A program made the translations under genes and the position numbers. Source: Pseudomonadota bacterium (GTDB taxonomy: Bacteria > UBA10199 > 2-02-FULL-44-16 > JBDRGF01). Taken from it: a stretch of 51,695 nucleotides of DNA. The stretch is taken from contig JBDRGF010000099.1 of the NCBI GenBank assembly GCA_043818055.1, positions 1 to 51,695 on the forward strand, in the 5' to 3' direction. This document shows positions 10,829-51,695 of this stretch, in pieces (the first letter of the stretch is position 1; the number at the start of each line of letters is the position of its first letter). Below the pieces are notes generated by a model that was given only the letters and a program-made list of their open reading frames with translations, was not told the origin of the DNA and ran no database searches.

Positions 10829-10836
<8 letters not shown>
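9240..10836 (+). pseudogene. Eco57I-like adenine methyltransferase with target-recognition region, frameshifted
   Basis: DEVFT, FLDPFTKTGVFL, FDVIIGNPPY. An extra AAGCGCA at 10591-10608 splits the gene into 9240..10613 and a tail ending at 10836. Confidence 0.85.
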
Positions 10837-13396
<2,560 letters not shown>

Positions 13397-13481
13397 CAAA
13401 ATTATTAAGGATACACTTACTGCCTTTTATGCGCCTGACCAAAGAAAAAATTGAAATTGTGGAGAGGGCTGGTGGATAAGA

Positions 13482-13928
13482 ATGTACTTTTGCCCTATCA
13501 TCAATGGCATTACCGACTTTTTTCGTTCGGTTACGCCAAACCCAAGTTTCTTGTCTGATGTTGCTGCATTCGAAGCAGCCATCATTGCTTTATTAATCCC
13601 TTTGAGTATTGAAATCGTTTCGAAGATATCAGAACGCTACAATTCAGATGCCATAACGCGCGCATTTGAGAATGGTTGGGGCAATAAAATCCTCCCACCA
13701 TTTCTTCTTATTAACATTGTGGCCGCAGTTTTTTTACGTTTTGTTGTTTCTGATCAGGTATCAAACGATTCAATTATCTGGAAAATATGTGCCTGGATTG
13801 TACTGTTGATATTTATAATCATTGCCGTAGCAATCTGGCGCGTGATTATGCGTATCAAAATGTTTGTGGGTGATCCAAAAGCAGTGATTGACCAATTATA
13901 TAAAGACGTAGAGGTCTCCCTTGAGTAA
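13482..13928 (+). CDS. Small membrane protein (about 3 TM helices), DUF2254-like N-terminal module
   Basis: Three hydrophobic stretches and IVSKISERY. Overlaps the start of the next gene. Confidence 0.7.
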   Translation: MYFCPIINGITDFFRSVTPNPSFLSDVAAFEAAIIALLIPLSIEIVSKISERYNSDAITRAFENGWGNKILPPFLLINIVAAVFLRFVVSDQVSNDSIIWKICAWIVLLIFIIIAVAIWRVIMRIKMFVGDPKAVIDQLYKDVEVSLE

Positions 13929-32325: not shown

Positions 32326-33222
32326 TTATCCTGCCTGAAAAGTATCTTCCGTTTCCTCCACGCCAGCGTCCTCTGACAACTCAGCTTCGTCTGAGCTTAT
32401 CCCCTTAGTTTCCGGAACTCTAACAACATCCACAATTATAACTGTAGCATTATCTTTTAAAATGGGTTTACCCGCTCGTTCTTTTTGAGGTGCATCTTTG
32501 ACTGCCTGAAGTATTTGTCCCGCAGCTTCCTTTGGTTTTTGTGTCGCCAGCAGGGATTCAATCCGTTTATCTTTTAAAATTTTGCTAACCCCATCTGTGC
32601 ACATGAAAAAACGATCGTTTATGTAAACCGGCATTATGGTGATATCCGCCCAAGCCCCATCTTTCATTCCGCCAAGCCATCTTCTTACAATGTTGCTCTC
32701 GGGATGGTCTTCAGCTCCCTCTTTTGAAAGCTTCTCTTCTCTCACCATATCATCCACTTTTGAATGTGAGCGGGTAATTTGTCTCAGAACGCCCTCGCTG
32801 TACCGATAACAGGGTGAATCACCGACATTGACACTGTAAACACTTGAACGCCTGAAAAGAAGAAATGACAGAGTTGTACCCATTTTCTTATAGGCTAATC
32901 TTTTCGCTTCTTCATTAAGCTCCTTGTTGACCACCCTGACAATCTTTTCCAGCAGTATCATATAATTATCCGCTTTGGGATTAACATCGCTATGCAAAAA
33001 GGTTGTATCTCCAATGGGTTTAAATAATAGATCTACCAGTTTAATCATCTCCCCTGTAACGTGTGAGGCAAAACGGCTTGCGAAATCTCCCCCCTCATAG
33101 CCGCCCATTCCATCTGCAATCAGGTATAAGTGCTCTTTAGAATCCGCATAAAAATAATCCTGATTTGTCTTTCTATCCATCTGCTCGGTTGCGCCATAAT
33201 GGCGAATGACTAGTTTATCCAT
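32326..33222 (-). CDS. PP2C-family Ser/Thr protein phosphatase
   Basis: NQD, IADGMGG, GTT, NVGDS, CTDGV, DNAT. Confidence 0.92.
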   Translation of the reverse strand: MDKLVIRHYGATEQMDRKTNQDYFYADSKEHLYLIADGMGGYEGGDFASRFASHVTGEMIKLVDLLFKPIGDTTFLHSDVNPKADNYMILLEKIVRVVNKELNEEAKRLAYKKMGTTLSFLLFRRSSVYSVNVGDSPCYRYSEGVLRQITRSHSKVDDMVREEKLSKEGAEDHPESNIVRRWLGGMKDGAWADITIMPVYINDRFFMCTDGVSKILKDKRIESLLATQKPKEAAGQILQAVKDAPQKERAGKPILKDNATVIIVDVVRVPETKGISSDEAELSEDAGVEETEDTFQAG

Positions 33223-33382
33223 GTTTTGCCCCCCTTGAGTTTATTTCAGCAACAGATACGGCTGTTTTTGAAATGCAAGATTACTACATTCAACAGAGGT
33301 AGCCAAGAGAAAACACATTTCTGATGACACCCCTCATCTCCTGGTGTAATATGACAGAAATCAATCAGAACCGGGGGGAACC

Positions 33383-34429
33383 ATGCCACAGAAAAAGAAA
33401 ACAACAGAAACGTCAAACAATACCGAAAACACTTTAAAGGACTACGAGCTGTTGCGTAAACTCACTGCTGATGAAGAACCCAGCTCATGGACGAGCTCTT
33501 ACTTAGCCAAAAATCCAAAAACTCACAGCAAAGTTATTCTATCCCGTTTAAATAAAGACCGGTATATCAACTACTATAGCCTTTCCAATTACACGGAAGA
33601 AACAAAAGACACTTACAAAGGAGAGTCGGAAAAAAAATATGATGAAAAGGTGAATCGTTTTGTTGAAATTTGCGAAAAAGTTCGTGAATTTCATCATCCG
33701 AATATCACACAGATTTTTGACGTTTTAAAAGATTTTGAGACAGGTGAACCGATCGTCGTTACCGATTCCGAGTACATTAAGGGCAGGCAGATTTATGAGG
33801 CTACCGGAGGTATGGATGTTTTGGATATGATGCCGATTTTTTTGAGTGAACTTGAAGCTGTGGAATTTATGCACCGTAAAGGCCTGCTGCACCTGAATAT
33901 AAAATCACGAAAGATTCGCGTCTATGAAGATGAAACATATGAAATAAAATTTACTGACTGCGGTTTTGCTGCCGACATGAAGGATGTTCCGGAGGATATC
34001 CTTGGCACACCTCTCTATTCGGCCCCTGAAGTGATTCTGATGGCAAAGGATAAAATCGGTGCACCATCCGATTTATATTCACTCGCAGTTTTGGCCTACG
34101 CCTGTATGTCCCGGGTATATCCTTTTAATCACCGCAAAGCGGCCAAGAGCATACCTGAATTGAAGGAAAGGATTTACCGGGAATCAACTCCGATACTTCC
34201 ATCTGAACAGAATCGCAACCTCATTGATGAACTGAGTGATACATCAAAACTTGGTAACGTGAAAGAGTTTGAAAAATTGATCGTACAGCAGTTAAATCCA
34301 AACCCAAACGAGCGACCGTTTAAAACTGCTCATGATTTTAAAGAAAAAATTATTGATCTGTTTCCAGAAGCAATAGAGATGAGACCGCTTGGGAACAGGA
34401 CATTGACACTCGGTTCAGCACCTAAATAG
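33383..34429 (+). CDS. Ser/Thr kinase-fold protein, probable pseudokinase
   Basis: HPNI, GTPLYSAPE and SDLYSL are present. The catalytic loop is HLNIKSRK, TDCG replaces DFG, and there is no Gly-rich loop. Confidence 0.82.
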   Translation: MPQKKKTTETSNNTENTLKDYELLRKLTADEEPSSWTSSYLAKNPKTHSKVILSRLNKDRYINYYSLSNYTEETKDTYKGESEKKYDEKVNRFVEICEKVREFHHPNITQIFDVLKDFETGEPIVVTDSEYIKGRQIYEATGGMDVLDMMPIFLSELEAVEFMHRKGLLHLNIKSRKIRVYEDETYEIKFTDCGFAADMKDVPEDILGTPLYSAPEVILMAKDKIGAPSDLYSLAVLAYACMSRVYPFNHRKAAKSIPELKERIYRESTPILPSEQNRNLIDELSDTSKLGNVKEFEKLIVQQLNPNPNERPFKTAHDFKEKIIDLFPEAIEMRPLGNRTLTLGSAPK

Positions 34430-34466
34430 GCTTGAGACATTGGGGGATATTCTCATTGTTAAGAAT

Positions 34467-37400
34467 ATGGATATTAACGACATCCTTCCAGGAACCGTTG
34501 TCAGCCGCAATCGAATAGAAGAGAAAATCGGCAGCGGCGGATCAGGTGTCGTTTATTTAGCCGCAGATTTAGAGTCAAAAAGAAAAATCGCCTTAAAATT
34601 CCTAAACAAAGAGATGTTGCGCGATATCTACAAGTCGCAGTTATCTTCAGACTTGTCTGCTGAGGAGGCGAAAGACAAACTCAATAAACAGTATAAGACA
34701 ATTACGAAGCGTTTCAAAAAGGAATATGAAAATCAGCTGCTCGGCATTCATCATCCCAACATAGCTTCGGTTTATGAGTTTGGATATTTTGAAGGATTTT
34801 TCTTTTTTACTACGGAATTCATCGAAGGGAAAAATATATTTTTAGCCGGAGTTAGGTTATCTCCGGATGAAAAAGTCTCTCTCTTTATTCAGATGTTTGA
34901 AGGTTTGCAGTTTATCCATGATAATGGCCTTCTGCATGGCGACATAAAACCGGAAAACGTCCTGGTGGAGAAGAGAAATGGCAAACAGGTTGTAAAAATA
35001 ATAGACTTTGGAATAGCCGCGGCTATATCGGACAGCAAAAGGATGATAGCAGGCACACCCATGTTCATGTCGCCTGAAGTAATCCTGTCGTGGGACGAAA
35101 AAAACGGGGTTTCCAGCGATCTATATTCAGCAGCAGTGCTAATGTATTATTGTCTTTTGACTGGAAGCTATCCATTTTTGGATCGACATGCGTGCAAAGG
35201 CAATTTGGAGAAACTCGCTGAAATCGTGGAAAAAGAATCTCCTCCTCAAGGTCTTGAGGAACAAAGCGATCGAATACCGCAATACCTGGACACAATCGTG
35301 ATGAGGCTCTTGAGCAAAAAACCCCAGGATCGTTTCTATGGAAGTGCACGGGCAGTGATTAACGCCCTTAAAACGCGCTCGCCCGATGATTTTAAAGATG
35401 ATCCCGAAATAAAATCTCCATATCTGATTCCTGATAAACATATCGCTCATGACGCTGAAATAAAAAATATCAGTGCTAATTTAGATCTGCTTGCGAAGGG
35501 CAAGCAGCCTTCACCAACATCAGTCTATTGTTTTTCGGGAGAGGAAAATCTGGGAAAAACACATCTGCTTCAGACTATAAAAAAACTTGCGGAAGAAAAA
35601 GCGGGGAAGATTTCCGTTCATTCTATGAAATTTCCGGTTGATGACGAATGGGCGGCTGCATGGATAAATCAACTTTCAAATGATCTGGATGAAAACAAGC
35701 TGCCACTTGTTATTCTGTTTGATGACTTGCACTTATTAGAGGGCTCGTCCAATTTCGCGCAGATTAAAAAAACGATTCTTGGATTAATCCGTACTATTGT
35801 TGAGCGTGAAATTCAGCCAGGGCTTTTCAAAAAGCAAAAACCGTTGTTTTTGTGTTTCACCACACATTCAGGCAAATTAACATCGAAAGAAAATATCGTA
35901 TCGATTATTACAGAAACAAAAAATCTTCCAATTCAGATTATAAATCTCAAGCCATTCACGGAAATCGATCTTAAAAACTATCTCAAATCTACAGTTGCAT
36001 TACGAGTTCAGGAAATCCCGCAAAGATGGATAAAATCACTTTTGCGTCAAACCGGAGGAGTACCGGGCGAAATCAATGAACATCTGATTCAACAGGACAG
36101 CGAAGGTCTGTTGTTTGATATCGATGGCAGTGTGCATCTCTTTGCAGCGCAGGCACCTGAAGCAGATGAAACGCACAAAGAAGTACCGAAATCGACGGAG
36201 ACTCGTCTTTTGAAATTGTACAACAGCCTTAGCCCCGACGAAAAGCGCGTGGTAAATTTTATCTCCACCTGGTACTATAAATGGTTGACTCCGGCTCTAA
36301 AACTCACAGACTTTAAAGAGCTATTTTCCACACCATCCTTAAATCAAACGCTTATTAACTTATGTAGAAAAAAAATATTGGTTCACTCCACCTCTGATGA
36401 GGAGCTCACGGAAACAGATACATTACCGCCACAGATATCAGATGAAAATTTAGACAAGGGGGATATTTATTCATTCGCTAATCCCTATTTGCCTGATTTG
36501 GTTTATAGTAAGTTAGATGAGAATAAAGGAGAAGAGTGGCATAGCACAATAGCTGCATATATATCCAAAAAATACAGTCATGATTCCCAATATCTAAACG
36601 CTATTCAATTGCATATCGGCTTGGGTTTTTCGACCAAAAAATCGATATCAAATATAATAAGGCTTTCAAGAACGCTTATTTTCAAAACGGTTCATGTTGA
36701 CTCTGCAATAGAACTTCTGGAAAACGCTTTGAAAAAAAATATTGCTAAAAATTTAATATCGGCAAATGAGGCTATTTATATTCATCTACTCCTGATACAC
36801 GCCCACCGATACGCGGGTGAATATAAAAAAGCTTTAACGATCTTTGATGAAACATTGAACTTTTTCGATGCTAAATACCAAACTACCTGGAAGCTCCGCT
36901 TCTATCTGGCTGCCTTACCTGCTTACATAGCGCTCCACAAATATGATGAAGCAAATCAGATTATAACGGAAGCTTATAAAACCGCATCTATCAACAAACA
37001 TCAAACTTACTATCTGCTGTTTCTTAATTGGGAAGGCCTTATTAATTTTTATCGCAAAGATGAAGGCAGAGAATATCTTGATAAAGCAAAGGCGATTTTT
37101 GAACAAAGTCTCGAATTGGAAAAAACACTTCCAAATGTCATTGTGAACCGAATAACGAATAACGAATTAGGCCAGGTATATCTGGCTCTGGGAGAGAAAG
37201 ATAAAGCCGCAAAAGAGATGCTGACGAAACTCACAAGATGCGAATCAACCGGAAACACAATATTAATAATGCTCGCGACACTCGCTTTGGCCGAAACCCT
37301 GAGAAATTGCCGCAAGTTTTCACGGGCTGTAACATATTGTCAAAAGGCCATTACATTGGCAAAGCGGACTAACCTCGGACACTGGCTGGTAAAAATTCAT

Positions 37401-37904
37401 CTGGTTTTATCTATGTGCTATCTTGACTGGCATAAATATAAAGAATCCATTGACCAGAGTCATCGATGCATTTCAGCAAGCGTCTGTCTGGATAATGAAA
37501 ATGAACACAGTGAAGTTCTAAAATACGCATGGACCAACATTGGAAATTGCTATAACGAAATGAAAAACTGGAACGAAGCCCCGAAATTTTTCGAAGCTGC
37601 AACTGATCTTGGAAAGGATGATTTTTTGCAAGCCAGAGCCAGGCTTGGAATGGCTGAATCCTTGTTGCACATGAATAAATTAGAGGAATCCCTGTCACAA
37701 ATTGATGAGGCAGATGCGATATTGGCTAAATTGCCGAACATCAGAGAAGATTTGAAATTTGTAAGCGGCTACTGGAGAATCAAAGTTCTAAAAAAACAAC
37801 AAAAATATGAGGAAGCAATATCTCTCCTCCCCTGCTTAAAAGAACTGGCGGGCAACAATTCATTATTTCTAAGAAAATACAAGGAAGTCGAAAAACGGGT
37901 TTAA
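34467..37904 (+). CDS. Ser/Thr kinase + P-loop NTPase (STAND/AAA-like) + TPR protein
   Basis: GSGGSG, ALK, HGDIKPEN, DFG, GTPMFMSPE; GEENLGKT, ILFDDLH, TGGVP; C-terminal TPR-like helices. Confidence 0.88.
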   Translation: MDINDILPGTVVSRNRIEEKIGSGGSGVVYLAADLESKRKIALKFLNKEMLRDIYKSQLSSDLSAEEAKDKLNKQYKTITKRFKKEYENQLLGIHHPNIASVYEFGYFEGFFFFTTEFIEGKNIFLAGVRLSPDEKVSLFIQMFEGLQFIHDNGLLHGDIKPENVLVEKRNGKQVVKIIDFGIAAAISDSKRMIAGTPMFMSPEVILSWDEKNGVSSDLYSAAVLMYYCLLTGSYPFLDRHACKGNLEKLAEIVEKESPPQGLEEQSDRIPQYLDTIVMRLLSKKPQDRFYGSARAVINALKTRSPDDFKDDPEIKSPYLIPDKHIAHDAEIKNISANLDLLAKGKQPSPTSVYCFSGEENLGKTHLLQTIKKLAEEKAGKISVHSMKFPVDDEWAAAWINQLSNDLDENKLPLVILFDDLHLLEGSSNFAQIKKTILGLIRTIVEREIQPGLFKKQKPLFLCFTTHSGKLTSKENIVSIITETKNLPIQIINLKPFTEIDLKNYLKSTVALRVQEIPQRWIKSLLRQTGGVPGEINEHLIQQDSEGLLFDIDGSVHLFAAQAPEADETHKEVPKSTETRLLKLYNSLSPDEKRVVNFISTWYYKWLTPALKLTDFKELFSTPSLNQTLINLCRKKILVHSTSDEELTETDTLPPQISDENLDKGDIYSFANPYLPDLVYSKLDENKGEEWHSTIAAYISKKYSHDSQYLNAIQLHIGLGFSTKKSISNIIRLSRTLIFKTVHVDSAIELLENALKKNIAKNLISANEAIYIHLLLIHAHRYAGEYKKALTIFDETLNFFDAKYQTTWKLRFYLAALPAYIALHKYDEANQIITEAYKTASINKHQTYYLLFLNWEGLINFYRKDEGREYLDKAKAIFEQSLELEKTLPNVIVNRITNNELGQVYLALGEKDKAAKEMLTKLTRCESTGNTILIMLATLALAETLRNCRKFSRAVTYCQKAITLAKRTNLGHWLVKIHLVLSMCYLDWHKYKESIDQSHRCISASVCLDNENEHSEVLKYAWTNIGNCYNEMKNWNEAPKFFEAATDLGKDDFLQARARLGMAESLLHMNKLEESLSQIDEADAILAKLPNIREDLKFVSGYWRIKVLKKQQKYEEAISLLPCLKELAGNNSLFLRKYKEVEKRV

Positions 37905-39325
37905 AACTTGCGAAGCTTCAATCTCAAACCAATCAAAATCATTATCGCTGACAATAGAGCACTAAGAAACAAAAGCTTCTCTTCCACAGGCGCATTTGAA
38001 GATTGAACTAACGAGCATGCTTTCATGGCGGCAACACCGGAACCGCCCGCTCCGGAGCCAAATCCTAAAACATCCTCTTTACCGCCTGCACCATCAATCG
38101 ATACCTGATCACCTGACCCCGCTTCCATTGCCTCTCCACCCTCAGTCGATATCGTCACAGGACCGGTGGATGTGAAGATGATTTCTTCACGAACCCAAAG
38201 GGCTGTGGTTGAACGCGTGGTGCCGGTGGGACCTGTGTATGTAGCCATAAGATATTTTCTCTGAAAACTTGGGTCGGAAATCGTAATAGCATCGCCACCT
38301 TTTATGAGTTCGTTGTTTTTAAGGTCATAGTGCACCCGAAATGCCGTCAGCTGATTTTGTTTTTGGTTGATATCGTCGCCGGCTTCATAGATTTCAACAT
38401 ATCTTATGGGATCATCTTTTGATAATGCAGTTTGTGGCAAAATAAACGTCGGTTTATCTTTGATGATTTGAGAATCAATCAACCCGATGTTTGAATTGGC
38501 ACCTTTTTCTAGCATATAAGTATCAGAGGCTTTTATTTTATCACCATTATCAGAGAGAGAAATCATCTTCGATATCGATAAATTCTTTACATCAGTATCA
38601 GCGTGGATGCCGATCTTGTTTTTCGTAACGCTGCTCTTTTCGACGAGGATGTTCTCGCCTGCAGCGTCAATGCCGATGTCGAAATTAGAAACCTTTACAT
38701 TCTTAATCGTCACATTGCTGCCATCTCTCATTGTTTTGATGCCAACGCTTGGATTATCTTTATCACCGGCTATTCCGGATAGATCAGAGTTCACTAACAA
38801 ACAGCCGCCATCATGACAATTCAATTGAAGAGAAGTCTTGCCGTTCGTTGTAACAATTTTATTCAAAATCAAAAAACCATCATAATCAATCACAAGGCCT
38901 GATTTTTCATTTTTAAATTCCAACCCTGAAATAATCATCGGAATGTTTATGTGATTCAAGTTTTTTAATTCGACAATGCTTTCAATTACCGCGTCCTCTC
39001 CCAGACCGTTATCCATCTGAAAACAGAGTTCATAATAGTTGCCACCAGCAACCAAATATCGTGAATAATTTTTAAAAGCGTTTATGATGCTCTGTTCATT
39101 TGTTACAAAAATTATTTTTTCTTTTTTCGGTTTAGCGCATATTGCGTTTAGATCGATTTCCACATTTGAATCTGGAATTTTGAATAAATTCTTTGATGGA
39201 AGTTGCGCGAAGATTGGTGGCGAAATATGGATATTTGGATTATCAAATGTTGCTACATCTGCGGTAAAGGATGTATTCGTCCAAAAAACCGTACAGAAAA
39301 AAATTATTATTGCTATCTTTTTCAT
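37901..39325 (-). CDS. Secreted beta-helix-like surface protein with a Cys-containing C-terminal sorting tail (MYXO-CTERM/GC_trans_RRR-like)
   Basis: Signal peptide MKKIAIII; parallel beta-helix-like repeats; Gly-rich linker, ACSLV, a TM helix, then RLKLRKF. Confidence 0.72.
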   Translation of the reverse strand: MKKIAIIIFFCTVFWTNTSFTADVATFDNPNIHISPPIFAQLPSKNLFKIPDSNVEIDLNAICAKPKKEKIIFVTNEQSIINAFKNYSRYLVAGGNYYELCFQMDNGLGEDAVIESIVELKNLNHINIPMIISGLEFKNEKSGLVIDYDGFLILNKIVTTNGKTSLQLNCHDGGCLLVNSDLSGIAGDKDNPSVGIKTMRDGSNVTIKNVKVSNFDIGIDAAGENILVEKSSVTKNKIGIHADTDVKNLSISKMISLSDNGDKIKASDTYMLEKGANSNIGLIDSQIIKDKPTFILPQTALSKDDPIRYVEIYEAGDDINQKQNQLTAFRVHYDLKNNELIKGGDAITISDPSFQRKYLMATYTGPTGTTRSTTALWVREEIIFTSTGPVTISTEGGEAMEAGSGDQVSIDGAGGKEDVLGFGSGAGGSGVAAMKACSLVQSSNAPVEEKLLFLSALLSAIMILIGLRLKLRKF

Positions 39326-39344
39326 AAGCCCCCAGCACCTCTTA

Positions 39345-39360
39345 TGCATTTTCTAGGCCA
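39345..39360 (-). promoter_or_regulatory. Putative sigma54 promoter for the surface protein gene
   Basis: Minus strand TGGCCTAGAAAATGCA, GG-N10-GC. Confidence 0.55.
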
Positions 39361-39708
39361 TGTTTGATGTGATGAGCATATCATAATATTGTTTATATTT
39401 CAAGATGTTAGATGTTGAGGCCGATGCAGATCAGGTGAGAAATGACCCGTTTTGTACGAACACCGTCAATTTTTTGAAAAATCCCAGTCCGGAAAACAGG
39501 ACATTCAGTTCAGATTTTTGGACAGAAAATAGAACATCACATGTATCGGATGTGGTCTTTGAATATAGCTGGTCTCCTCGTAATTTGATTTTCAAAAATT
39601 CAACTGAATTATTGCATCAGTACCAAAATCCGGACTCAAATATCGACAAAAATTTCATCTCAAAAAATAAAAGCCGTTCAAACCCCCTTTATAACAAAAT
39701 CTTACTTT

Positions 39709-39724
39709 TGGCATAAGAATTGCT
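39709..39724 (+). promoter_or_regulatory. Sigma54 (-24/-12) promoter upstream of the radical SAM operon
   Basis: TGGCATAAGAATTGCT closely matches the TGGCAC-N5-TTGC consensus. Confidence 0.72.
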
Positions 39725-39871
39725 TTATATCAGGGCAAAAGTTACATGATAAGAAGTTAAAGGATATTGGAATATTGTTGAATAGTTGATTGACAGGAAA
39801 ATCTGATTACATAAGGCCTTTAGCTTGACAAGGCTGCAACCTGCATATATACAGCGCTCAGGGGGGGCAAA

Positions 39872-41908
39872 GTGGGTGCTTTAAAAGATGATTTTCAAAA
39901 TGGAATAATAGCGGGTGATAAATTCGCTAACAGTTCACTCTTCTGCACCGATGATCTCCCTTTCTCAAATCAAAAAAATTCTATCCACACGGTTCATAAA
40001 AATAAGTCCATCAACACGGGAACAAACTCGAAAAAAATCTTACTTGTAAATCCTCCGTTGCCAAGTGAAAGCTGTTATCCACCCTTAGGTTTGTTGAGTA
40101 TTGCATCGATACCTTTTTCTTCCAAAGTTGATATCATGATTAAAGATTATAATCTTGTTTATCACAAAAACAAAAAGTATCAGAAAGTGTTCAACATTGC
40201 CATTAAAGACCTAATGACGTGTGAATACGATCTGATTGGGATCACAGCAAATTGCAATACATTGCCATTTGTCTTCGCTCTATGTGAAGCACTACAACAT
40301 CAGAAGTTAAAAATCATTTTAGGAGGCCCGGGTGTCACTTTTTTAGATAAAGAGCTTTTAGATAGATTGCCTAATGTTCTGGCAATTTGCAGAAACGAAG
40401 GCGAGCAAACGTTTCAGGCGTTTGTTAATAATAATTTTGTATGCTCTAATCAAATACCAAATATAAGCTATTTTGATGAATCAGGAAAATTCATTCGCAC
40501 AAATAGTTTTTTTATTGAGAATCTTGATACATTGTCATTTCCATTTACTGATATTGAAATTGATTTTAATGATTATCCTCTGAATCACCTCTATACGAAG
40601 GAAAAATTCGCCTTGATAGAAGCCGGAAGGGGTTGTCCTTATGACTGTTCATTTTGCACTACGAATAAGATGTGGGGCAGAAGGTATCGAGTGAAATCCC
40701 CTTTAAGAATAAAAAAAGAAATAATGCACTACCTGAATAAGGGATATCGAACAGTTAGTTTTGTTCACGACAATTTGGCTTGTTCAAAAAGTTTTATGGA
40801 AGAACTCTGTGGTTTAATATCAGATTTGGGCATTGCTTGGTCATGCAGTGTTTCGTTGAACAATTTTGATAAAAAATTGATGATTTCAATGAAAGAGGCG
40901 GGATGTAGAGGTGTTTTTCTTGGCATTGAATCAGGTTCCAAAAGAATTAAGGAAAAAATGCCTCACAAGCATGTCCGCGATGAAAAAAATAGGATTGAAA
41001 GTGCAATTAAGTGTTTCGACTTCGTCACTTTATCATTTATTGCTGGTTTTCCAGACGAAGATGAAGAATCATACATGGAGACTATAGCGATAGCTCACAA
41101 GTACAGGTTGAAAGGAGTCAACGATGTTCTCATACAACAATATTGTATCTTGCCTGGTAGTCGTGATCATACCGATCAATCATTTGTTGATACGGTAGTG
41201 ACGAAAGGACGACTACTCAAAAATGATAAATTTTTATATGAATGCATTGAAAGCTTTGAAAAACATATCCAAGAAAATAAAATAATCTTTATTAATTTTT
41301 TTGATTCAACCCCACTAAATTTACAGGCCTATAATTTATCTTCGATTACTACTATGTATAATATTTTAATAAATGTGTTCCCCAATATTTTGTTGTTATT
41401 GCTCAAACATGAAATCTTAGAGCTGAGTTCTGTGTCTAATGAGTTTGTGAACTATATCTTGAGATATTGTTCGTCATCTATCACATATGATAATGTTGGG
41501 AAAAAGATTCAGAACTATCTGTTCAAAGTGCTTAGAATTGATAACAGACGTCTCATTGAGGTGTTAAAGGAAATATATCAATGCGAAATCAATATCAAGA
41601 AGCTGTTATCCTCAGACAAAGGCAAATTTATTCGTCAGTCAGAAAAAATTATTATTCAAAATTCTTTCCCATACAAACATGTTACCGATACCGCATCAAC
41701 TTTAGTGCCTTGTCCTGGATATTATATTTACGTTCTTAGAGAAAAAGAAATCGAAGTTTTGAGAGTAAATCGGTCGGCCTATCTTGTTTATAATTTTCTT
41801 AAAAAGGACAGAGAACGAAAACAAATTTTATATTTTATGAAAAAAAACAATATTCCTGAATTTTATTTAGACAAGTTTATCAGTAATAAAATAGCAATTG
41901 AAAACTAA
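39872..41908 (+). CDS. Cobalamin-dependent radical SAM enzyme with a possible C-terminal RRE/PqqD-like domain
   Basis: ILLVNPP..YPPLGLLSIAS, IILGGP, EGE, GRGCPYDCSFC, GIESGS, FIAGFP. Confidence 0.9.
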   Translation: MGALKDDFQNGIIAGDKFANSSLFCTDDLPFSNQKNSIHTVHKNKSINTGTNSKKILLVNPPLPSESCYPPLGLLSIASIPFSSKVDIMIKDYNLVYHKNKKYQKVFNIAIKDLMTCEYDLIGITANCNTLPFVFALCEALQHQKLKIILGGPGVTFLDKELLDRLPNVLAICRNEGEQTFQAFVNNNFVCSNQIPNISYFDESGKFIRTNSFFIENLDTLSFPFTDIEIDFNDYPLNHLYTKEKFALIEAGRGCPYDCSFCTTNKMWGRRYRVKSPLRIKKEIMHYLNKGYRTVSFVHDNLACSKSFMEELCGLISDLGIAWSCSVSLNNFDKKLMISMKEAGCRGVFLGIESGSKRIKEKMPHKHVRDEKNRIESAIKCFDFVTLSFIAGFPDEDEESYMETIAIAHKYRLKGVNDVLIQQYCILPGSRDHTDQSFVDTVVTKGRLLKNDKFLYECIESFEKHIQENKIIFINFFDSTPLNLQAYNLSSITTMYNILINVFPNILLLLLKHEILELSSVSNEFVNYILRYCSSSITYDNVGKKIQNYLFKVLRIDNRRLIEVLKEIYQCEINIKKLLSSDKGKFIRQSEKIIIQNSFPYKHVTDTASTLVPCPGYYIYVLREKEIEVLRVNRSAYLVYNFLKKDRERKQILYFMKKNNIPEFYLDKFISNKIAIEN

Positions 41909-41922
41909 AACAGGAGGATGAC

Positions 41923-42111
41923 ATGAAGATAAACAATGCCACAAACATCAGAATTCCGAAAAGTGCTGGAGAGATCAAGATGTTAGCTAAAAAACGGAAG
42001 GCAACAGGAAATAATAAGCCATCATCACGAACATCAACAACAGAAGATAGCTTTCAAATGGTTAACAGAATAAGATTGGGAAGCTGTAATTCAAGAGATT
42101 ATCAAATGTAG
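41923..42111 (+). CDS. 62-aa peptide, candidate RiPP precursor
   Basis: Strong GGAGG RBS, fills the gap between two modifying enzymes, C-terminus RLGSCNSRDYQM. Confidence 0.6.
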   Translation: MKINNATNIRIPKSAGEIKMLAKKRKATGNNKPSSRTSTTEDSFQMVNRIRLGSCNSRDYQM

Positions 42112-42182
42112 GCGTATTTGCGCATTGATTTGGATTATATTGTATATAAGCTGCTATTTGCAGATAGCGGCGAGGGAGCGTC

Positions 42183-42950
42183 ATGAAATTGTTTTCTAAG
42201 ATTCTTCCGTATTATCCTACTTCTTCACCGTCCCACGGACAAGCCGTAGAATATATTTTTCAATCTTTGACTCAAAAATTTGGAGCGATGAAGTTTAATC
42301 TGCTGGATATTGGGGCAGGCATTGGTATTCAGGCAGAGAAATTTGCAAAAAAAGGCTGCGATGTTACCTGTATTGATAATTCACCGGAGATGGTAGCATT
42401 GTTTAAAAAACGATTTTCATCCCAACCGGCTTTCAATTTAAGAAATAATGTAAGGATCTTTGAAGATGATTGGCTAAATTCATCTGAAAAACAACAATGG
42501 AAAACACAAAAATATTACCATGGTGTATATGCTTTAGGCAACACGATAGGCTATTCTGGCTCAAAAGAGGATCTACGCAGAACATTCGACATGGCATATA
42601 ATTTATTGGTTGCAGGCGGTGTGTTTGGTTTCGATCAGATTGTCTTTCCAACGTCTTCTCACCTTGTTTGGTCGGATATCTATAAGACCGATGTGGATGG
42701 ACTTTCATTTCAACGTGCGGTTATGTACTCAATAGATGAAAATACCGGGATTGCGGAAGTCACATTAAATGTGAAGTGGTTAAGAAGTGGCAGGGAAGAG
42801 ATTGAAACAGAAACCTATCATAAATATGTTTTTTCACATGACGTTGTTTTGGAGTTTGCAAAACAGGCAGGATTTAGTCTTATTGATAAAATTGATTTGT
42901 TTGGATCACGTTATTCAAGAGATTCATTTATGTGGTTGCTGAAGAAATAA
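42183..42950 (+). CDS. Class I SAM-dependent methyltransferase
   Basis: LLDIGAGIG, IDNSPEMV, GNTIGY, LVAGGVFGFD. Confidence 0.9.
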   Translation: MKLFSKILPYYPTSSPSHGQAVEYIFQSLTQKFGAMKFNLLDIGAGIGIQAEKFAKKGCDVTCIDNSPEMVALFKKRFSSQPAFNLRNNVRIFEDDWLNSSEKQQWKTQKYYHGVYALGNTIGYSGSKEDLRRTFDMAYNLLVAGGVFGFDQIVFPTSSHLVWSDIYKTDVDGLSFQRAVMYSIDENTGIAEVTLNVKWLRSGREEIETETYHKYVFSHDVVLEFAKQAGFSLIDKIDLFGSRYSRDSFMWLLKK

Positions 42951-42975
42951 AAAAAACATAAGTTTTTTATCTGTT

Positions 42976-44523
42976 ATGGTTAAAAATTTTTTATTATTTT
43001 TTTTGACAGTGTTATTTGTCGCTGGCACAGCGCATGGTGATGACACCAATGTTTATTATAGTGCGTTAACAGCAGAGCCGACATCGCTGGACCCTAAAGA
43101 GATAAGAAATCATCCTACTGGAATGATAGGAAATCAGATCCATGAGGGTTTATTCTCATATGATGAGAATATGAATATTATACCAGCGGTAGCCAACACC
43201 TGGAAGGTGTCGAAGGATGGGAAAAATATTAATATTCAAATCCGAAGAGGAGCGAAATTTCATAATGGACAAGAGGTTAATTCTTTTGATGTAATCTATT
43301 CAATATCTCGTTTAGTCAAAACTGAAGGGTTAAATCATTACTTGTATAAGGAGTTGATGAATATCGATGGCGCTAAAGAATACAAAAAAGGCAATTCGAA
43401 AGCAATAAAGGGAATTGTTTTGATTGATAATTATTCCTTGCAAATTAATCTGCTAAAATCTCATCCGTATTTTTATAAAATATTAGCTGCACCAAACAGC
43501 GCTATTATTCCTGCAAATTTCGTTGAAAGATATCCAAGAGAAATTGACAACAAACCCGTTGGCGTTGGTCCGTTTAAAATACAAGAGTGGAGTAAGTGCG
43601 ATAAAATTGTTTTAGTGAGACATGATGAATATTATAGATCAAAACCCAACATCGATAAATTAGTGTTTTATTTTATGAAGCCAGACAAATTGATACAAGC
43701 ATTTGAAGATGGTAAAATCTATGATACCGCCAGCCTTAGCCTGTTTGAGGATTTTGATGTTAAGCTCCCAGAAGAACAGACATATCAAATAAAATTGCCG
43801 TTGGTTTATTTTCTTGCTTTCAATTCCAAAATCAAGCCGTTCAATAATAAATGTCTCAGGAAAGCTTTATACTTCTCGCTAAACAAAAAAATGCTTATGG
43901 AAAAAGTTTTTTTAAATCAACTTCCAGCTACATCAACAATTCCCTACGGGATTGGAGGCTATGAATTAGACAATGACGATTTAAAATATTCTCCGACTGT
44001 TGCGGAAGAAATGCTACGATGTGCAAAAGCATCGGGTTTTAATTTAAAACAAAAGCTTATCCTATACGGCAGGGAAACAATGCCGAATAAGGAAATGTTC
44101 AAAAAAGTTATTGAAGGCGATTATCGTAAGGTGGGGTTGAACGTTGAAGTGGCATTTCTGTCATCAGACTTGTTCTACAAAAAATTCTATAATGAAGAGT
44201 TGGGATTTTTTTATGCAGGGCATAACGCCAGCGTAAATGACGCGCTGTTCATATTGGGATGGTATGAAAGCGATCATCCATCTAATCTCACTGGCATGTC
44301 CAACAAACAATTTGACCTGTTGATGGAAATGGCCAGATCAGAGAAAGATGAATATGTTCGTTCTAAAATTTATTCTAATGCTGCAAAAATCATCAATGAT
44401 GAATATTTGCAAATCAATTTATTTAATCGTGTTTACAAGGGATATGTTAATCCTAAAGTAAAAAATTTTGAAATTTCTGAAATTGGTCCTTATGTTAGAT
44501 ATAACAAAATCATACTCGAATGA
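42976..44523 (+). CDS. Family 5 (DppA/OppA-like) solute-binding protein, stand-alone
   Basis: Signal peptide; EPTSLDP, IHEGL, PAVA..W, FHNG, GVGPF. No permease or ABC ATPase genes adjacent. Confidence 0.9.
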   Translation: MVKNFLLFFLTVLFVAGTAHGDDTNVYYSALTAEPTSLDPKEIRNHPTGMIGNQIHEGLFSYDENMNIIPAVANTWKVSKDGKNINIQIRRGAKFHNGQEVNSFDVIYSISRLVKTEGLNHYLYKELMNIDGAKEYKKGNSKAIKGIVLIDNYSLQINLLKSHPYFYKILAAPNSAIIPANFVERYPREIDNKPVGVGPFKIQEWSKCDKIVLVRHDEYYRSKPNIDKLVFYFMKPDKLIQAFEDGKIYDTASLSLFEDFDVKLPEEQTYQIKLPLVYFLAFNSKIKPFNNKCLRKALYFSLNKKMLMEKVFLNQLPATSTIPYGIGGYELDNDDLKYSPTVAEEMLRCAKASGFNLKQKLILYGRETMPNKEMFKKVIEGDYRKVGLNVEVAFLSSDLFYKKFYNEELGFFYAGHNASVNDALFILGWYESDHPSNLTGMSNKQFDLLMEMARSEKDEYVRSKIYSNAAKIINDEYLQINLFNRVYKGYVNPKVKNFEISEIGPYVRYNKIILE

Positions 44524-44529
44524 ACAAAT

Positions 44530-46377
44530 ATGAATATAAAGATTAAGCAAGCCTTGATAATTTCTTCAACTATTGTAATTGTTGTAATATGGATGTTAGC
44601 AGCAATCATTATTTTTTATTATTCCAAGAACATATTAAGGCAGGAATATGAAAAACAAAACATTGAAAAAATGCGCAACATAATCCTGATTATTACAAAT
44701 GATCTTATGACAGGTAATTATCTAAAAGTTAGAAACCAGTTAAAGCAGTTTGCAAATAATACCGACGCGACTGTTCTGACAGTGTATGATGATAATAGAG
44801 AAATAATAGAATCTGTCTCTGAGAAAGATTATCCTAAAGACATCGAGCATAATGTATTAGATCATTTTTCGAGCATTCTTTCTAAAAAAACATTCACTAC
44901 ATCCCATTCTGAGTATTCACTTTTTCATAAAAACAAGGAGCTTTTTGTCTGTATGGTGCCGATTTTTTTTAGAGATGATAAAAATGAGCCGTTTGGCTTT
45001 CTCGTAGGCGCTTTTAGTGTATCAGTCTTGCATAAATATCTTAAAAATTTATCAATCTTTCTATGTGTTCTGGCGATGTTGATGTTGGTTTTACAAGTGT
45101 TGGTTTCAACCAAAATTGCAAATAATATTTCAAATTCATTGCTCAGCCTTATGAGATCGGTTAAAAAATATTCCATGAACAAGGGGATACCTGAGATCAG
45201 AATCAAAAGCAGCATCTTTGAATTTAATAAACTGGCATGCGATTACAATCTGATGGCTCATAAAGTTATGGAGGCTCAAAAATCCGTTGAAAAAATGTCT
45301 AAGCTCGCCGCCATCGGTCAGATATCATCACAAGTAGCGCACGACATGCGATCGCCAGTGACGGTGATAAGGGGATATCTTGAAGGCGGGAGCAATTCCT
45401 CACTGAGAGAACCTGCGATAAAGAGCGTGGAGAAGCTCAACCGCATGGCAGATGAGCTGCTAGATTACTCGAAGGCATCGAAGATCGAGCCGGCTAAAAC
45501 ACCTTTCAAAGGTCTAATTGAAACTACAGTAAATTCAGAGGTGCAAAATCTCGCAGAAAAGAAAAATGTTAAACTCATCTATAATATAGAAAAGGATATA
45601 ACAGCTACTGTTGACGCTTATCGCATGGGACGCGTTTTAATAAACCTCATCACGAACGCGGTTCAGGCGGTCAAAGAGGATACCGGTGAGGTGAGAATCG
45701 CAGCCAGGGTAGAAAAAGATGCCCTTAAAATCACGGTTTCAGACAATGGCAGAGGGATTTCAAAAGAGGATTTGGCTAAAATATTCGACAGCTTTTTCAC
45801 GAAAGGAAAATCAGGCGGGACAGGGCTTGGGCTTTCATACTGCAAGAACGTCATCGAAGCGCACGGAGGAGCGATAGCAGTGAATAGCGAACCAGGAAAA
45901 GGTGCAGAGTTTGTTATTACAATTCCGTCCTGTATTTCAACACCACATACCACATGCTACATGCCACATGCTGTCCCTAGCCATCAGGCATCAGCGGTCA
46001 GCTGTCAGCCGACAAAAGGCGAGTTGGGCTCGAATGAAGACATCCTCGTCGTCGATGACGATGAAGAGATGGTGTTGCTGTGGAACGATATAATAGTAAA
46101 AAAATACAGAAGGCCTGCGATCACAGCATACAGCCCTGAAGAGGTGATGAGATTGCAGCTGGATTACGACAAGATATCGAAAGCGATAATCGATTATCAA
46201 TTTGATGGGAGCACACTCTCTGGTCTCGATGTCGTAAAGTTTTTAAGGGAAAAGGGTGTGAAGGTGATTCACATGTGCACGGGTATGTATAATGATAAAG
46301 AGCTTCAGGCTGAGGCTAAAAAGTTGGGGGTTGCATCAATAATACCAAAGCCGTTTGCTTTGGACATAAATATTTAA
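44530..46377 (+). CDS. Membrane hybrid sensor histidine kinase (2 TM, HAMP-like, HisKA, HATPase, REC)
   Basis: VAHDMRSP, NLITNAVQA, DNGRGI, GTGLGL; REC motifs ILVVDDD, IIDY, PKP. Confidence 0.93.
   Translation: MNIKIKQALIISSTIVIVVIWMLAAIIIFYYSKNILRQEYEKQNIEKMRNIILIITNDLMTGNYLKVRNQLKQFANNTDATVLTVYDDNREIIESVSEKDYPKDIEHNVLDHFSSILSKKTFTTSHSEYSLFHKNKELFVCMVPIFFRDDKNEPFGFLVGAFSVSVLHKYLKNLSIFLCVLAMLMLVLQVLVSTKIANNISNSLLSLMRSVKKYSMNKGIPEIRIKSSIFEFNKLACDYNLMAHKVMEAQKSVEKMSKLAAIGQISSQVAHDMRSPVTVIRGYLEGGSNSSLREPAIKSVEKLNRMADELLDYSKASKIEPAKTPFKGLIETTVNSEVQNLAEKKNVKLIYNIEKDITATVDAYRMGRVLINLITNAVQAVKEDTGEVRIAARVEKDALKITVSDNGRGISKEDLAKIFDSFFTKGKSGGTGLGLSYCKNVIEAHGGAIAVNSEPGKGAEFVITIPSCISTPHTTCYMPHAVPSHQASAVSCQPTKGELGSNEDILVVDDDEEMVLLWNDIIVKKYRRPAITAYSPEEVMRLQLDYDKISKAIIDYQFDGSTLSGLDVVKFLREKGVKVIHMCTGMYNDKELQAEAKKLGVASIIPKPFALDINI
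45943..46010 (+). repeat. Two adjacent heptamer tandem arrays in the kinase linker
   Basis: (C[CT]ACAT[AG])x4 at 45943-45970, then AGCCATC AGGCATC AGCGGTC AGCTGTC at 45979-46006. Confidence 0.75.
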
Positions 46378-46391
46378 TGGAGGGTGTTGAA

Positions 46392-47771
46392 ATGAACAAT
46401 GATTATACAATATTATGTGTGGATGATGATGAGAACTTTTTAGCATATATAAGGGATAGGCTTTCCGATTATAACGTTATTACTACAACATCACTAAAGC
46501 ATGCCCTCTCCTTGTTGAATACGGAAGATATAGACACTCTGCTTCTCGATATAGATTTGAAGGGAGAATCAGGGCTGGACGGCTTAAGGGATATCAAGGA
46601 GATGGACGCGTCGGTCGATATCGTCATGGTCACAGGACATCGCGACCCAAAGTTTGTTGTCCAGGCGATTAAGGCGGGGGCATCGGATTATATATGCAAG
46701 CCGATAAACAGCGACGATCTTTTAGTCTGCATAGAGAAGTCAAAAAAAATCAGGCTCGACAAGAAGAAGATAGACGCCCTGATGAGCGAACTCAATAACG
46801 TAGATATTTCGTCAAGGATAGTTGGAAGAAGTAAAGCGTTTTGTAACTTGATAAAAACGGCAGACAAGGTCAAAGGACACCTTAGCGCGAACGTGTTGAT
46901 CGAGGGAGAGAGCGGCACTGGCAAAGAGCTGTTGGCGCGATACATTCATCGTCTGGAGGGCGATCGGCCGAACAGGCCTCTGATCGTAGTGAATTGTGCA
47001 GCTATTCCTGAAAATCTGATTGAATCGGAGCTGTTTGGGCATGAGAAGGGGGCATTCACCGGCGCGACTAAGAATAAACTTGGAAAATTTGCCCTTGCAG
47101 ATGGAGGAGACATCTTTCTCGACGAGGTAAGCACATTGAAGATCGAGACACAGGCAAAGCTGTTGAGGATAATTCAGGAGGGGGAGTTCTGTCCTTTGGG
47201 AAGTAATGTTTCAGTGAAATCAACTTTCAGGGTTATAGCCGCCTCCAATGATGATCTTGAAAAGATGGTAGCTCAGGGAAGGTTCCGTCTTGATTTATAT
47301 CATCGTCTGAAAATCATAACGCTTACTACACCGTCGCTCAGGGATAGAAAAGAGGATATAGAGGATCTCGTGTTGCATTTTCTAAAGAAATACAGTGAGA
47401 AGGGAAAAGAAAAACAGATCACGAAATCCGCAATTGAGAAACTGGAAAGACATGATTGGCCGGGGAATATCAGAGAGCTTGAAAATGTGATTCACAGCGC
47501 AGCCATTTTTTCAGAGAAGGAGATCATCGATGAAAGCAACATCACGATTCCGACCTGCAAATCTGTAAAATATAACGGTGGAATTATGAATCTTTCTCCA
47601 TCAGTTACAGGGAACATCATACCGCTGAAGAAATTTGTTTCGAAGGTGGAGAGGGAATACATAAAAGAGTCTATTGATCTTATGAACGGTTCAAAGGAAG
47701 AAACGGCAAAGCATCTTGGCATCGGCAGGACGACGCTCTTTGCAAAGTTGAAGAAGACAACAAAGAAGTGA
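46392..47771 (+). CDS. NtrC-family sigma54-dependent response regulator
   Basis: REC domain (VDDD, LLDI, KP), GESGTGKEL, GAFTGA, FLDEV, WPGNIREL, Fis-type HTH. Confidence 0.95.
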   Translation: MNNDYTILCVDDDENFLAYIRDRLSDYNVITTTSLKHALSLLNTEDIDTLLLDIDLKGESGLDGLRDIKEMDASVDIVMVTGHRDPKFVVQAIKAGASDYICKPINSDDLLVCIEKSKKIRLDKKKIDALMSELNNVDISSRIVGRSKAFCNLIKTADKVKGHLSANVLIEGESGTGKELLARYIHRLEGDRPNRPLIVVNCAAIPENLIESELFGHEKGAFTGATKNKLGKFALADGGDIFLDEVSTLKIETQAKLLRIIQEGEFCPLGSNVSVKSTFRVIAASNDDLEKMVAQGRFRLDLYHRLKIITLTTPSLRDRKEDIEDLVLHFLKKYSEKGKEKQITKSAIEKLERHDWPGNIRELENVIHSAAIFSEKEIIDESNITIPTCKSVKYNGGIMNLSPSVTGNIIPLKKFVSKVEREYIKESIDLMNGSKEETAKHLGIGRTTLFAKLKKTTKK

Positions 47772-51065: not shown

Positions 51066-51695
51066 CTACATATACATACTACATGCCACATACGTTTTTT
51101 GATATTTTGCACCTTCTTCAAGCATGAAAGTATCCAGCGTCTTTATGCCATCACCATTTTCTATCATTGATTCCATGGATTTTATTGAAAGGTTTTTGAC
51201 TGTTGAATCAACACGGATGCCGAAGAGTTTGTTATTTGTGATAGAACTCTCTTCGACGAGGATGTTTTCGCCTTGAGCATCGATGCCGATGTCGTAGGCG
51301 GATATTGTGACACCATTTATAGTTATCCCCTTGCCTAGCGTCTTAATGCCTGTTGAAAATTTAGGGGGAATTTCTGAAACACCTGTCAGCGTTGAATTTG
51401 CAACCAAACACCCATTTGGACAATTGAGTTCAATGCCGTGCTTTGATTTATCGATCGTGATGTTGTGGAGGATTGTGTAGGCATCGGAGTTGATAGCGAG
51501 GCCTGCTGCATCGCCGCTAAATTCTAGACCGGATATTATTACAGGTTTATTATCATAAGATGATTTTGCAAATTTGATTACTCTGTCGAGAGTGCGTGGA
51601 TATATAACTAATTTGTTATCAACTACTTTTTTTATTCCTATTTTAAAACAAAACTCATAATAACTGTTGTTTACGAGATAGGTAGAATTTGGATC
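51066..51695 (-). pseudogene. Paralog of the 37901-39325 beta-helix protein, 5' partial and C-terminally truncated
   Basis: Frame is open from the window end. YYEFCF, IISGLEF, DIGIDAQGENILVE and DTFMLEEGA match the paralog. The stop codon lies inside a heptamer repeat. Confidence 0.7.

Follow-up and report, generated by a model that had tools for sequence, protein, structure and literature searches.

Modified-peptide pheromones that are sensed by membrane kinases are textbook Gram-positive biology. Here we describe a promoter and six-gene operon at positions 39,709 to 47,771 of a 51,695-nucleotide stretch of bacterial DNA (the window, meaning the whole stretch that was analysed), which we read, on balance, as a sigma54-driven, autoinducible module for producing and detecting a signal in the form of a modified peptide. 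Among the described systems, agr works by positive feedback and uses the enzyme AgrB. In Vibrio, the output of the LuxU/LuxO step is a sigma54 activator, as in the window, and the binding protein LuxP is not a family 5 protein.

Closest in genetic logic is ComQXPA of Bacillus subtilis. In the available parts of two sources (PMC4008528, PMC7794433), genes for a modifying enzyme, a pre-peptide, a membrane kinase and a regulator are adjacent, as they are here, and the kinase likewise has a variable input half and a conserved cytoplasmic half. The window differs in using a cobalamin (B12)-dependent radical S-adenosylmethionine (SAM) enzyme and a methyltransferase in place of an isoprenyl transferase, a separate periplasmic family 5 binding protein (SBP5) with a Cache-like hybrid kinase of two transmembrane segments in place of the polytopic ComP, and a sigma54 activator in place of a LuxR-type regulator. 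The window genome also carries several cassettes, and the host is presumably diderm. LuxP–LuxQ of Vibrio, as covered by the available part of PMC8534201, shares a permease-less binding protein whose signal passes to a hybrid kinase by way of the PDC/Cache domain. LuxP binds autoinducer-2 and LuxQ has a tandem PDC, whereas the window kinase has a single Cache-like domain and the putative signal genes lie in the same operon. The agr system of Staphylococcus and fsr of Enterococcus, in the same part of that source, share a processed peptide that is sensed by a co-encoded kinase; further likenesses are a probable positive feedback and, in 4 of 8 cassette peptides, a Cys that stands 5–8 residues before the C-terminus. 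In contrast, AgrC binds its peptide directly through a six-transmembrane domain, and the window cassette has no AgrB-like gene. Relative to both Gram-positive systems, the window lacks a ComQ or AgrB enzyme, a polytopic ComP/AgrC sensor and a LuxR/LytTR regulator. In streptococci, radical SAM RiPP (ribosomally made peptide with post-translational modifications) genes are tied to quorum sensing through SHP/Rgg (RaS-RiPPs; PMC13361665, PMC8092268); the available parts of these sources describe a separate peptide and Rgg regulator that control the cluster, so that the RiPP is the output and not the signal.

For the enzymes, the closest described case is the aminopyruvatide (apy) cluster, which, in the available part of its preprint (bioRxiv 10.1101/2023.10.30.564719), shares a B12 radical SAM enzyme containing a RiPP recognition element (RRE), a methyltransferase and a small precursor. 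The window cassette has no MNIO, partner protein or P450, and its precursor lacks the C-terminal Asp and the CBX2-3G motif and ends in Met; sensor genes are not described in that part of the preprint. Membership in the aminopyruvatides was rejected: no match to MNIO, which defines the class, was found among the six cassette genes and both flanks (Pfam, NCBIfam), all of which have another assignment or are unrelated, the precursor motif is absent, and cassette enzymes score 148–244 bits against an ApyD cut-off of 750. Nor does the cassette belong to ComQXPA, agr or LuxPQ, and it combines ComQXPA-like logic with a LuxPQ–LuxO-like receptor and output. No paper describing this layout was found in the literature searched, whose coverage leaves out most subscription journals; the preliminary description likewise knew of no Gram-negative system laid out in this way; the supplements of the ApyD preprint, with homologous clusters, could bear on membership. 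The layout is a real, recurrent and undescribed combination of known parts. If our reading is true, modified-peptide pheromone systems extend to a diderm lineage with B12 radical SAM chemistry and sigma54 output, an Opp-type protein has been repurposed as a kinase co-receptor, and orphan ApyD-like RiPP clusters gain a biological role.

The window lies on contig C99 of a 2.93 Mb genome of 43% GC (G000); C42, C35, C73, C75, C102 and the like are other contigs of that genome, G033:C3 and similar labels denote contigs of other genomes in the phylum, and labels such as L034 are numbered loci. The operon is made up as follows.

39709..39724, + strand: sigma54 -24/-12 promoter, TGGCAT-N5-TTGCT, the sole perfect match in the window
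39872..41908, + strand: cobalamin-dependent radical SAM enzyme, ApyD-like, with a C-terminal RRE-fold domain (about residues 590–678) (Pfam, NCBIfam, predicted structure)
41912..41917, + strand: strong ribosome-binding site (RBS) of the small open reading frame (ORF), AGGAGG (sequence)
41923..42111, + strand: basic ORF of 62 amino acids (aa), putative precursor peptide (ORF list, composition)
42150..42171, + strand: 9-bp hairpin 3' of the small ORF (z 0.47)
42183..42950, + strand: Class I SAM methyltransferase (Pfam, NCBIfam, PDB comparison)
42976..44523, + strand: family 5 (Opp/Dpp-type) periplasmic binding protein, SBP5, without a permease (Pfam, tree, neighbourhoods)
44530..46377, + strand: hybrid kinase, transmembrane segment – single Cache-like domain – transmembrane segment – HisKA – HATPase – REC (Pfam, predicted fold)
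46377..47771, + strand: NtrC/AtoC-type sigma54 activator, REC-AAA-HTH (Pfam, NCBIfam, motif)

The six co-oriented, tightly spaced genes and the small ORF with its strong RBS are thus present as first described, with intergenic gaps of 14, 71, 25, 6 and -1 nt. All six frames are intact and the catalytic motifs that were checked are kept; the activator carries GAFTGA at residue 225. Contigs from public DNA runs are identical to the window over 41770–42360 and 41914–42162 (one run may be the source sample), and because they match without differences the 62-aa ORF is not an assembly error. The contigs of one RNA run also cover the non-coding upstream DNA and are therefore uninformative on transcription.

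The radical SAM protein matches Radical_SAM with 64 bits and the B12-binding domain with 30.4 bits, slightly below the Pfam cut-off of 32.1, which 6 of 6 related enzymes scanned pass. Its GTG start is uncertain, and residues 1–37 have a predicted local confidence (pLDDT) below 50 in an AlphaFold2 model of pLDDT 84.8. The protein has no close relative outside the window genome among the matches listed, in which the C42 paralogue is 40% identical and the remainder 24–36%. The best curated model is ApyD, with 168 bits (NCBIfam). The same model ranks first in NCBIfam for 5 of 5 cassette enzymes, all of them far under the cut-off. According to the available part of its preprint (bioRxiv 10.1101/2023.10.30.564719), ApyD is an RRE-containing B12 enzyme whose precursor is beta-methylated on the penultimate Tyr. 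When folded alone, the C-terminal domain of the window enzyme is predicted to form three strands and three helices, and it resembles the RRE of MibB (VIA Z 9.3, root-mean-square deviation 2.3, 73 aligned), TigE (Z 8.8) and TbtB (8.6), as well as McbB, MccB, NisB and TbiB1. Foldseek by itself gave no match at E <0.001 (best E 0.043). PqqD matches were found in 6 of 37 homologous C-termini, and the window enzyme's own C-terminus had none. The predicted fold, with its RRE, supports the proposal that the enzyme is of the RiPP type, and an RRE at the C-terminus implies an enzyme built for acting on a ribosomal peptide. A predicted complex of residues 52–678 with the 62-aa peptide scored a median of 0.01 (runs 0.00, 0.49 and 0.01), which argues neither way. 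The methyltransferase is under every model cut-off. It is closest to amine N-methyltransferases: its nearest named models are N-methyltransferases (daptide methyltransferase, 36.5 bits against a cut-off of 175) and its PDB neighbours are glycine N-methyltransferases. The window genome encodes a BtuF/C/D-like uptake set, which could supply cobalamin.

The overall structural likeness of the radical SAM model is to CysS, OxsB, MgmA and TsrM, and CysS, OxsB and TsrM act on small molecules. These top whole-protein matches would fit enzymes that make a small-molecule signal or modify some other target, with the 62-aa ORF not being the substrate, as would the lack of a conserved peptide core and the existence of C73 and four related kinase cassettes, in which a binding protein comes with a methyltransferase or GNAT gene and no tiny ORF was seen. 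We consider this improbable, given the RRE fold, the preference of family 5 proteins for peptides (most of those in the PDB comparison are peptide binders) and the placement of tiny ORFs. Of 9 loci with a B12 enzyme, 8 have an RBS-bearing tiny ORF beside it; the background is 18 in 374 co-oriented gaps of the genome (4.8%), and 4.7% of shuffles of the window gap give such an ORF. Related cassettes at L325, L329, L330 and L331 belong to the same kinase subfamily. They are sigma54 cassettes with a methyltransferase, GNAT or PRAI gene and with ABC_sub_bind, LIV, dCache or NMT1 binding proteins, the activator coming first in three, and they are possibly small-molecule versions of the module.

The modified-peptide reading places the signal in the small ORF. 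The 62-aa product is basic, with a single Cys at position -8, a single Tyr at -3 and a C-terminal Met; no signal peptide or transmembrane window was found in it, and no Pfam or NCBIfam match. In 11 of 15 cassette gaps, picked by eye, there is an RBS-bearing ORF of 8–70 aa. The last 17 residues of the window peptide are like the short homologues, with a basic V-x-x-[VI]-[KR] followed by Cys. The cassette B12 enzymes are mutually 24–40% identical. Selenocysteine read-through in the peptides that end at TGA was weighed by eye and set aside. Strong hairpins of 11–20 bp occur in homologous loci (C42, C35 and G014:C58 at z -4.5 to -6.5) and hairpins follow the tiny ORF in G005 and G088 too, without a z-score; the window hairpin is not significant. 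The small ORF is therefore backed by position and not by sequence conservation, so that, of the conservation expected in homologous loci, its presence by position was borne out and a conserved core was not found.

Outside the phylum, a family of ORFs of about 60–100 aa, mostly with an N-terminal [IV]x[IV]P, lies upstream of ApyD-like enzymes (13 distinct sequences; L166, L178, L240, L243, L249, L255, L260, L266, L271 and others), and these ORFs are probably an undescribed precursor family. A hidden Markov model was built from the 13 sequences. It misses the window peptide, and a shared IxIP-like motif was dropped as evidence.

The binding protein matches SBP_bac_5 with 207 bits. As claimed in the preliminary description, it comes without permeases, and no OppB/C-like permease gene was found in any of 16 SBP5 loci examined (16/16). 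Setting aside the proteins on which an SBP5 profile was trained, its three best matches each come before a kinase. In a tree of 79 proteins (5 of 84 rows were left out as fragments of the same genes), the 16 kinase-linked SBP5s show 2 label changes against a shuffled mean of 14.9 and form clustered, long-branched groups apart from the ABC-linked clades, although the tree has long branches and training bias, which weigh the other way. The window SBP5 is 21–29% identical to those of other cassettes. The kinase has the order HisKA-HATPase-REC with H271 and hydrophobic windows at residues 3 and 170, and the periplasmic part between them is predicted to fold as a single Cache-like domain. Separately from the kinase-linked clade, tandem arrays of 6–7 SBP5 genes occur at G014:C39 (L131), G003:C22 and G012:C35. 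High-scoring SBP5-profile matches include P0121, P0132, P0143 and P0144, in which repeated SBP5 domains are joined to BTAD-AAA, MCP, Ser/Thr kinase-AAA or DyP domains and the repetition inflates the scores.

The layout recurs in variant copies within the phylum, which comprises 93 genomes and is coextensive with its class; recurrence of this kind is also seen in systems for peptide signalling between cells. Searches over 61 and 93 genomes used the SBP5, an SBP5 profile, the radical SAM protein and the kinase core as queries, after which the regions were read; SBP5 matches were partly inspected, so the counts are lower bounds. At least 15 loci in 11 of 93 genomes have a family 5 protein before a kinase, directly or across one enzyme gene, and 11 of the 15 SBP5 loci with a visible kinase have modifying-enzyme genes. 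The order radical SAM, tiny ORF, methyltransferase or unknown gene, SBP5 and kinase is found in the window, C42, C35, G033:C3 and G005:C1 (3 genomes), with G033:C3 having the exporter-less order of the window and a 65-aa ORF. G088:C69 has radical SAM, tiny ORF and SBP5 up to the contig end, and the G070:C360 cassette also ends at a contig edge. Six SBP5-kinase loci have other enzymes: C73, G057:C60, G011:C92 (a 9-aa ORF and two methyltransferases), G014:C58, G071:C129 and G087:C35. At G057:C60 (L034 10666–12335), an alpha/beta hydrolase gene, a 38-aa ORF with a signal-peptide-like N-terminus, an ICMT-like methyltransferase gene, SBP5 and kinase follow one another, an arrangement that we take to be PapR/Phr-like. 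The predicted conserved synteny was thus borne out in 5 loci, from 3 genomes, for radical SAM, tiny ORF, SBP5 and kinase as a linked set, and not for the full order of six genes.

With the radical SAM protein alone as query no related locus was found. A five-sequence alignment yielded 158 loci, of which nearly all come from other phyla. They comprise 79 genome and 79 metagenome loci, each set being limited to the best 80 of about 600, and 96 of the loci are 8 kb or longer. Among these 158, SBP5 was found in 2, a kinase in 8 and both in 0; the linked layout was thus not found outside the phylum in the sampled loci, a sample that does not show absence. At L154, L161, L175 and L253, an ApyD-like radical SAM gene lies directly before a kinase gene of 910–930 aa; three of these loci are titled Bacteroides or Maribellus, and in three that were scanned the kinase is a TPR-HisKA-REC-AraC hybrid.

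Three further SBP5-kinase cassettes lie in the window genome, on C42, C35 and C73, and C75 carries a related one.

C42: MFS – radical SAM – 18-aa ORF – methyltransferase – SBP5 – kinase
C35: sigma54 site – MATE – methyltransferase – radical SAM – 16-aa ORF – SBP5 – kinase
C73: sigma54 site – MFS – gap without an RBS-bearing ORF – methyltransferase – SBP5 – kinase – activator
C75: sigma54 site – MFS – 26-aa ORF – methyltransferase – SPASM enzyme – LIV-type binding protein – kinase – activator

An activator gene follows the kinase in some copies only. An MFS or MATE exporter leads these four cassettes and also the G005 cassette, and exporters of these types are found nowhere else in the window genome. 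In the window no MFS, MATE or RND gene of this kind was found, which bears out the earlier remark that no exporter is visible there.

The kinases of these cassettes are variable at the input and conserved at the output. Hypervariability and high AT mark the enzymes, the peptide and the SBP5 along with the sensor half, whereas conservation extends over the kinase core and the activator. The window kinase is 22–23% identical to those of C73 and C75 in the sensor half and 67–68% in the kinase half, and DNA similarity to the paralogous kinases starts at about codon 260. GC is 0.33–0.37 over the radical SAM, peptide, methyltransferase and SBP5 genes; within the kinase gene it is 0.31 for the sensor half and 0.46 for the kinase half. 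The sensor half has a lower GC in 13 of 14 kinases and a lower third-position GC (GC3) in 12 of 14, in a comparison that covers those 14 kinases alone. With kinase residues 1–260 as the query, only the self-match was found among 1,415 candidates. Identity is also mosaic: the window enzymes are nearest those of C42, the C42 SBP5 is nearest that of C73, and the window kinase core is nearest C73 and C75. ComP, in the available part of PMC4008528, has a variable N-terminal and a conserved cytoplasmic part. By analogy, variable input on conserved output, here seen between paralogues and distant genomes, suggests exchangeable signal types. We tentatively extend this, at a little short of even confidence, to a family of plug-in circuits for peptide pheromones in a phylum that is uncultured and presumably Gram-negative, with methylated RiPP autoinducers, SBP5s on single-Cache kinases, a shared sigma54 enhancer network and four to six signal types per cell that would be exchanged by recombination within the kinase gene. 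The four SBP5-kinase cassettes of the window genome form a built-in matrix of cognate and non-cognate pairs, so that the idea can be tested in a laboratory host, with no need to culture the organism.

The same cassettes bear on an unlikely alternative, in which the peptide is an effector (antimicrobial or metal-binding) and is not the ligand; the SBP5-kinase pair would instead turn on its production in response to a cue from outside, for instance peptides released by prey or by lysed cells. Enzyme-less SBP5-kinase pairs do lie beside peptidase or peptide-transporter-like genes (G026, G072, G070), the C35 SBP5 is 42% identical to that of the enzyme-less G014:C86, and the disagreement between the SBP5 and enzyme identities noted above fits as well. 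One shared cue would, however, not need a separate diverged, AT-rich SBP5 and sensor half in each cassette, and the receptor genes stand behind the same promoter as the enzymes.

The control region carries the following elements upstream of the promoter.

39487..39502, strand not assigned: box 1, an enhancer-like palindrome of the form GTYY-N8-RRAC, at -222 relative to the sigma54 site (motif scan)
39508..39523, strand not assigned: enhancer-like box 2, at -201, 21 bp after box 1 (motif scan)
39620..39635, strand not assigned: box 3, one mismatch, at -89; the proximal box in paralogous promoters is at -91 (motif scan)
39345..39360, - strand: divergent sigma54-like site of the 482-aa upstream gene (motif scan)

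The perfect sigma54 pattern, which substantiates the promoter proposed before the operon, occurs 47 times genome-wide against 2–8 in 3 shuffles, and rpoN (sigma54) is present in the genome; at one mismatch, 2 sites were found in the window with 4.06 expected, which is not above chance. Pairs of GTYY-N8-RRAC boxes number 7 genome-wide against 0–2 in 5 shuffles. In five of these 7 the distal box is 111–112 bp before a sigma54-like site, and 6 of 7 lie in or directly beside cassettes of the window's kinase family. Single or paired related boxes precede several homologous cassettes of other genomes. The window pair also lies 163/142 bp upstream of the divergent sigma54-like site, and such a site precedes 4 of 5 examined paralogues of the 482-aa gene. 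At least six paralogous activators could bind these boxes. Feedback on the operon through its activator is likely, as far as can be judged from these elements. A search of the + strand for a basal sigma70 promoter found none.

Several observations weigh against the autoinducing reading. The window copy has neither an exporter nor a dedicated protease gene, and the exact order of six genes is seen in the window only. C73 has an exporter, methyltransferase, SBP5, kinase and activator and no radical SAM gene or RBS-bearing tiny ORF, and no tiny ORF was seen at L325, L329, L330 and L331, where the RBS test was not applied. The peptides of homologous loci are 9–65 aa long and not alignable, the window ORF is unusually long (62 aa against 16–27 aa in most homologues), and the basic five-residue motif, picked by eye post hoc, is present in 5 of 8 peptides only. 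Membership of the peptide in the family of about 60 aa near ApyD-like enzymes was rejected (2.1 bits, with 397 of 2,000 shuffles equally high). Three of the 15 SBP5-kinase loci (G026:C29, G072:C58, G014:C86) have no co-oriented biosynthetic gene, and therefore the pair can sense outside ligands. A canonical Opp system with permeases is encoded on C102, and its permease could serve SBP5 in trans. These same promoters are the source from which the enhancer motif was drawn up by eye, the upstream DNA of C35 and C73 is near-identical, and the window box pair lies twice as far out as is usual and could act on the divergent gene.

The absent exporter, long ORF, weak hairpin, doubled enhancer distance and disordered N-terminal extension of the radical SAM protein could together indicate that the window copy is a decaying or half-assembled mosaic, in which the exporter was lost, the peptide ORF is an extended remnant and the sensor part alone works. 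We regard this as the least probable alternative: the six frames and the checked catalytic motifs are intact, no exporter remnant was found between the promoter and the radical SAM gene, and G033:C3 shares the exporter-less order together with an ORF of similar length.

On balance we favor an autoinducible module, for which we propose the following mechanism. The RRE domain would bind the small-ORF product, and the ApyD-like enzyme would C-methylate a residue near its C-terminus, the fold being predicted directly and the substrate and chemistry taken from ApyD. After proteolysis, the methyltransferase would methylate the peptide, probably on an amine, as its nearest models suggest. Export of the product would have to occur in trans, the probable exporters being the MFS/MATE proteins that the paralogous cassettes encode. 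In the periplasm, SBP5 would bind the product of its own cassette and present it to the Cache-like domain of the kinase in the manner of LuxP and LuxQ, as their conserved adjacency suggests. The kinase would phosphorylate the activator, which would bind the GTYY-N8-RRAC boxes and fire the promoter at 39709, so that the operon would induce itself. The activator may also fire promoters of genes that lie next to members of this kinase family and encode secreted proteins or other RiPPs.

Other genes stand near the cassettes. The 482-aa gene belongs to a roughly ten-member family of 480-aa secreted or surface proteins with a tail that is Gly-rich, hydrophobic and basic (window 37901–39349 and 51066–51695, both -). 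They have no Pfam or NCBIfam match and share a sigma54-like site that overlaps the first ATG. About ten copies, some partial, of an S8 protease of about 1,070 aa, 70–79% identical, are located on C99 (47785–50985, -), C34, C35, C38, C87, C100, C103, C107, C109 and C148. In C35, G005:C1, G057:C60 and G033:C3 the cassette kinase has S8 genes adjacent to it or close by, and in G011:C92 close by; they were rejected as targets, with 0 of 9 examined upstream regions having a sigma54-like site or box pair (some starts approximate).

A block of PP2C, Ser/Thr kinase and Ser/Thr kinase-TPR genes adjoins the window cassette (32326–37904) and the C42 cassette (8766–14419), and two Ser/Thr kinase genes are near the G057:C60 cassette. 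On C38 (3265–6901, -), a sigma54 site accompanies a radical SAM gene of the SPASM type and a tandem row of five ORFs rich in Cys (71–151 aa, CxxxC-like spacing), which we take to be a ranthipeptide/sactipeptide-like cluster. L042 on C3 (80–8739, -) has a kinase of the same broad type with an enhancer pair, a sigma54-like site and a 178-aa secreted protein, together with a 24-aa ORF with an RBS, a PqqD-like 93-aa ORF and three SPASM-like radical SAM genes.

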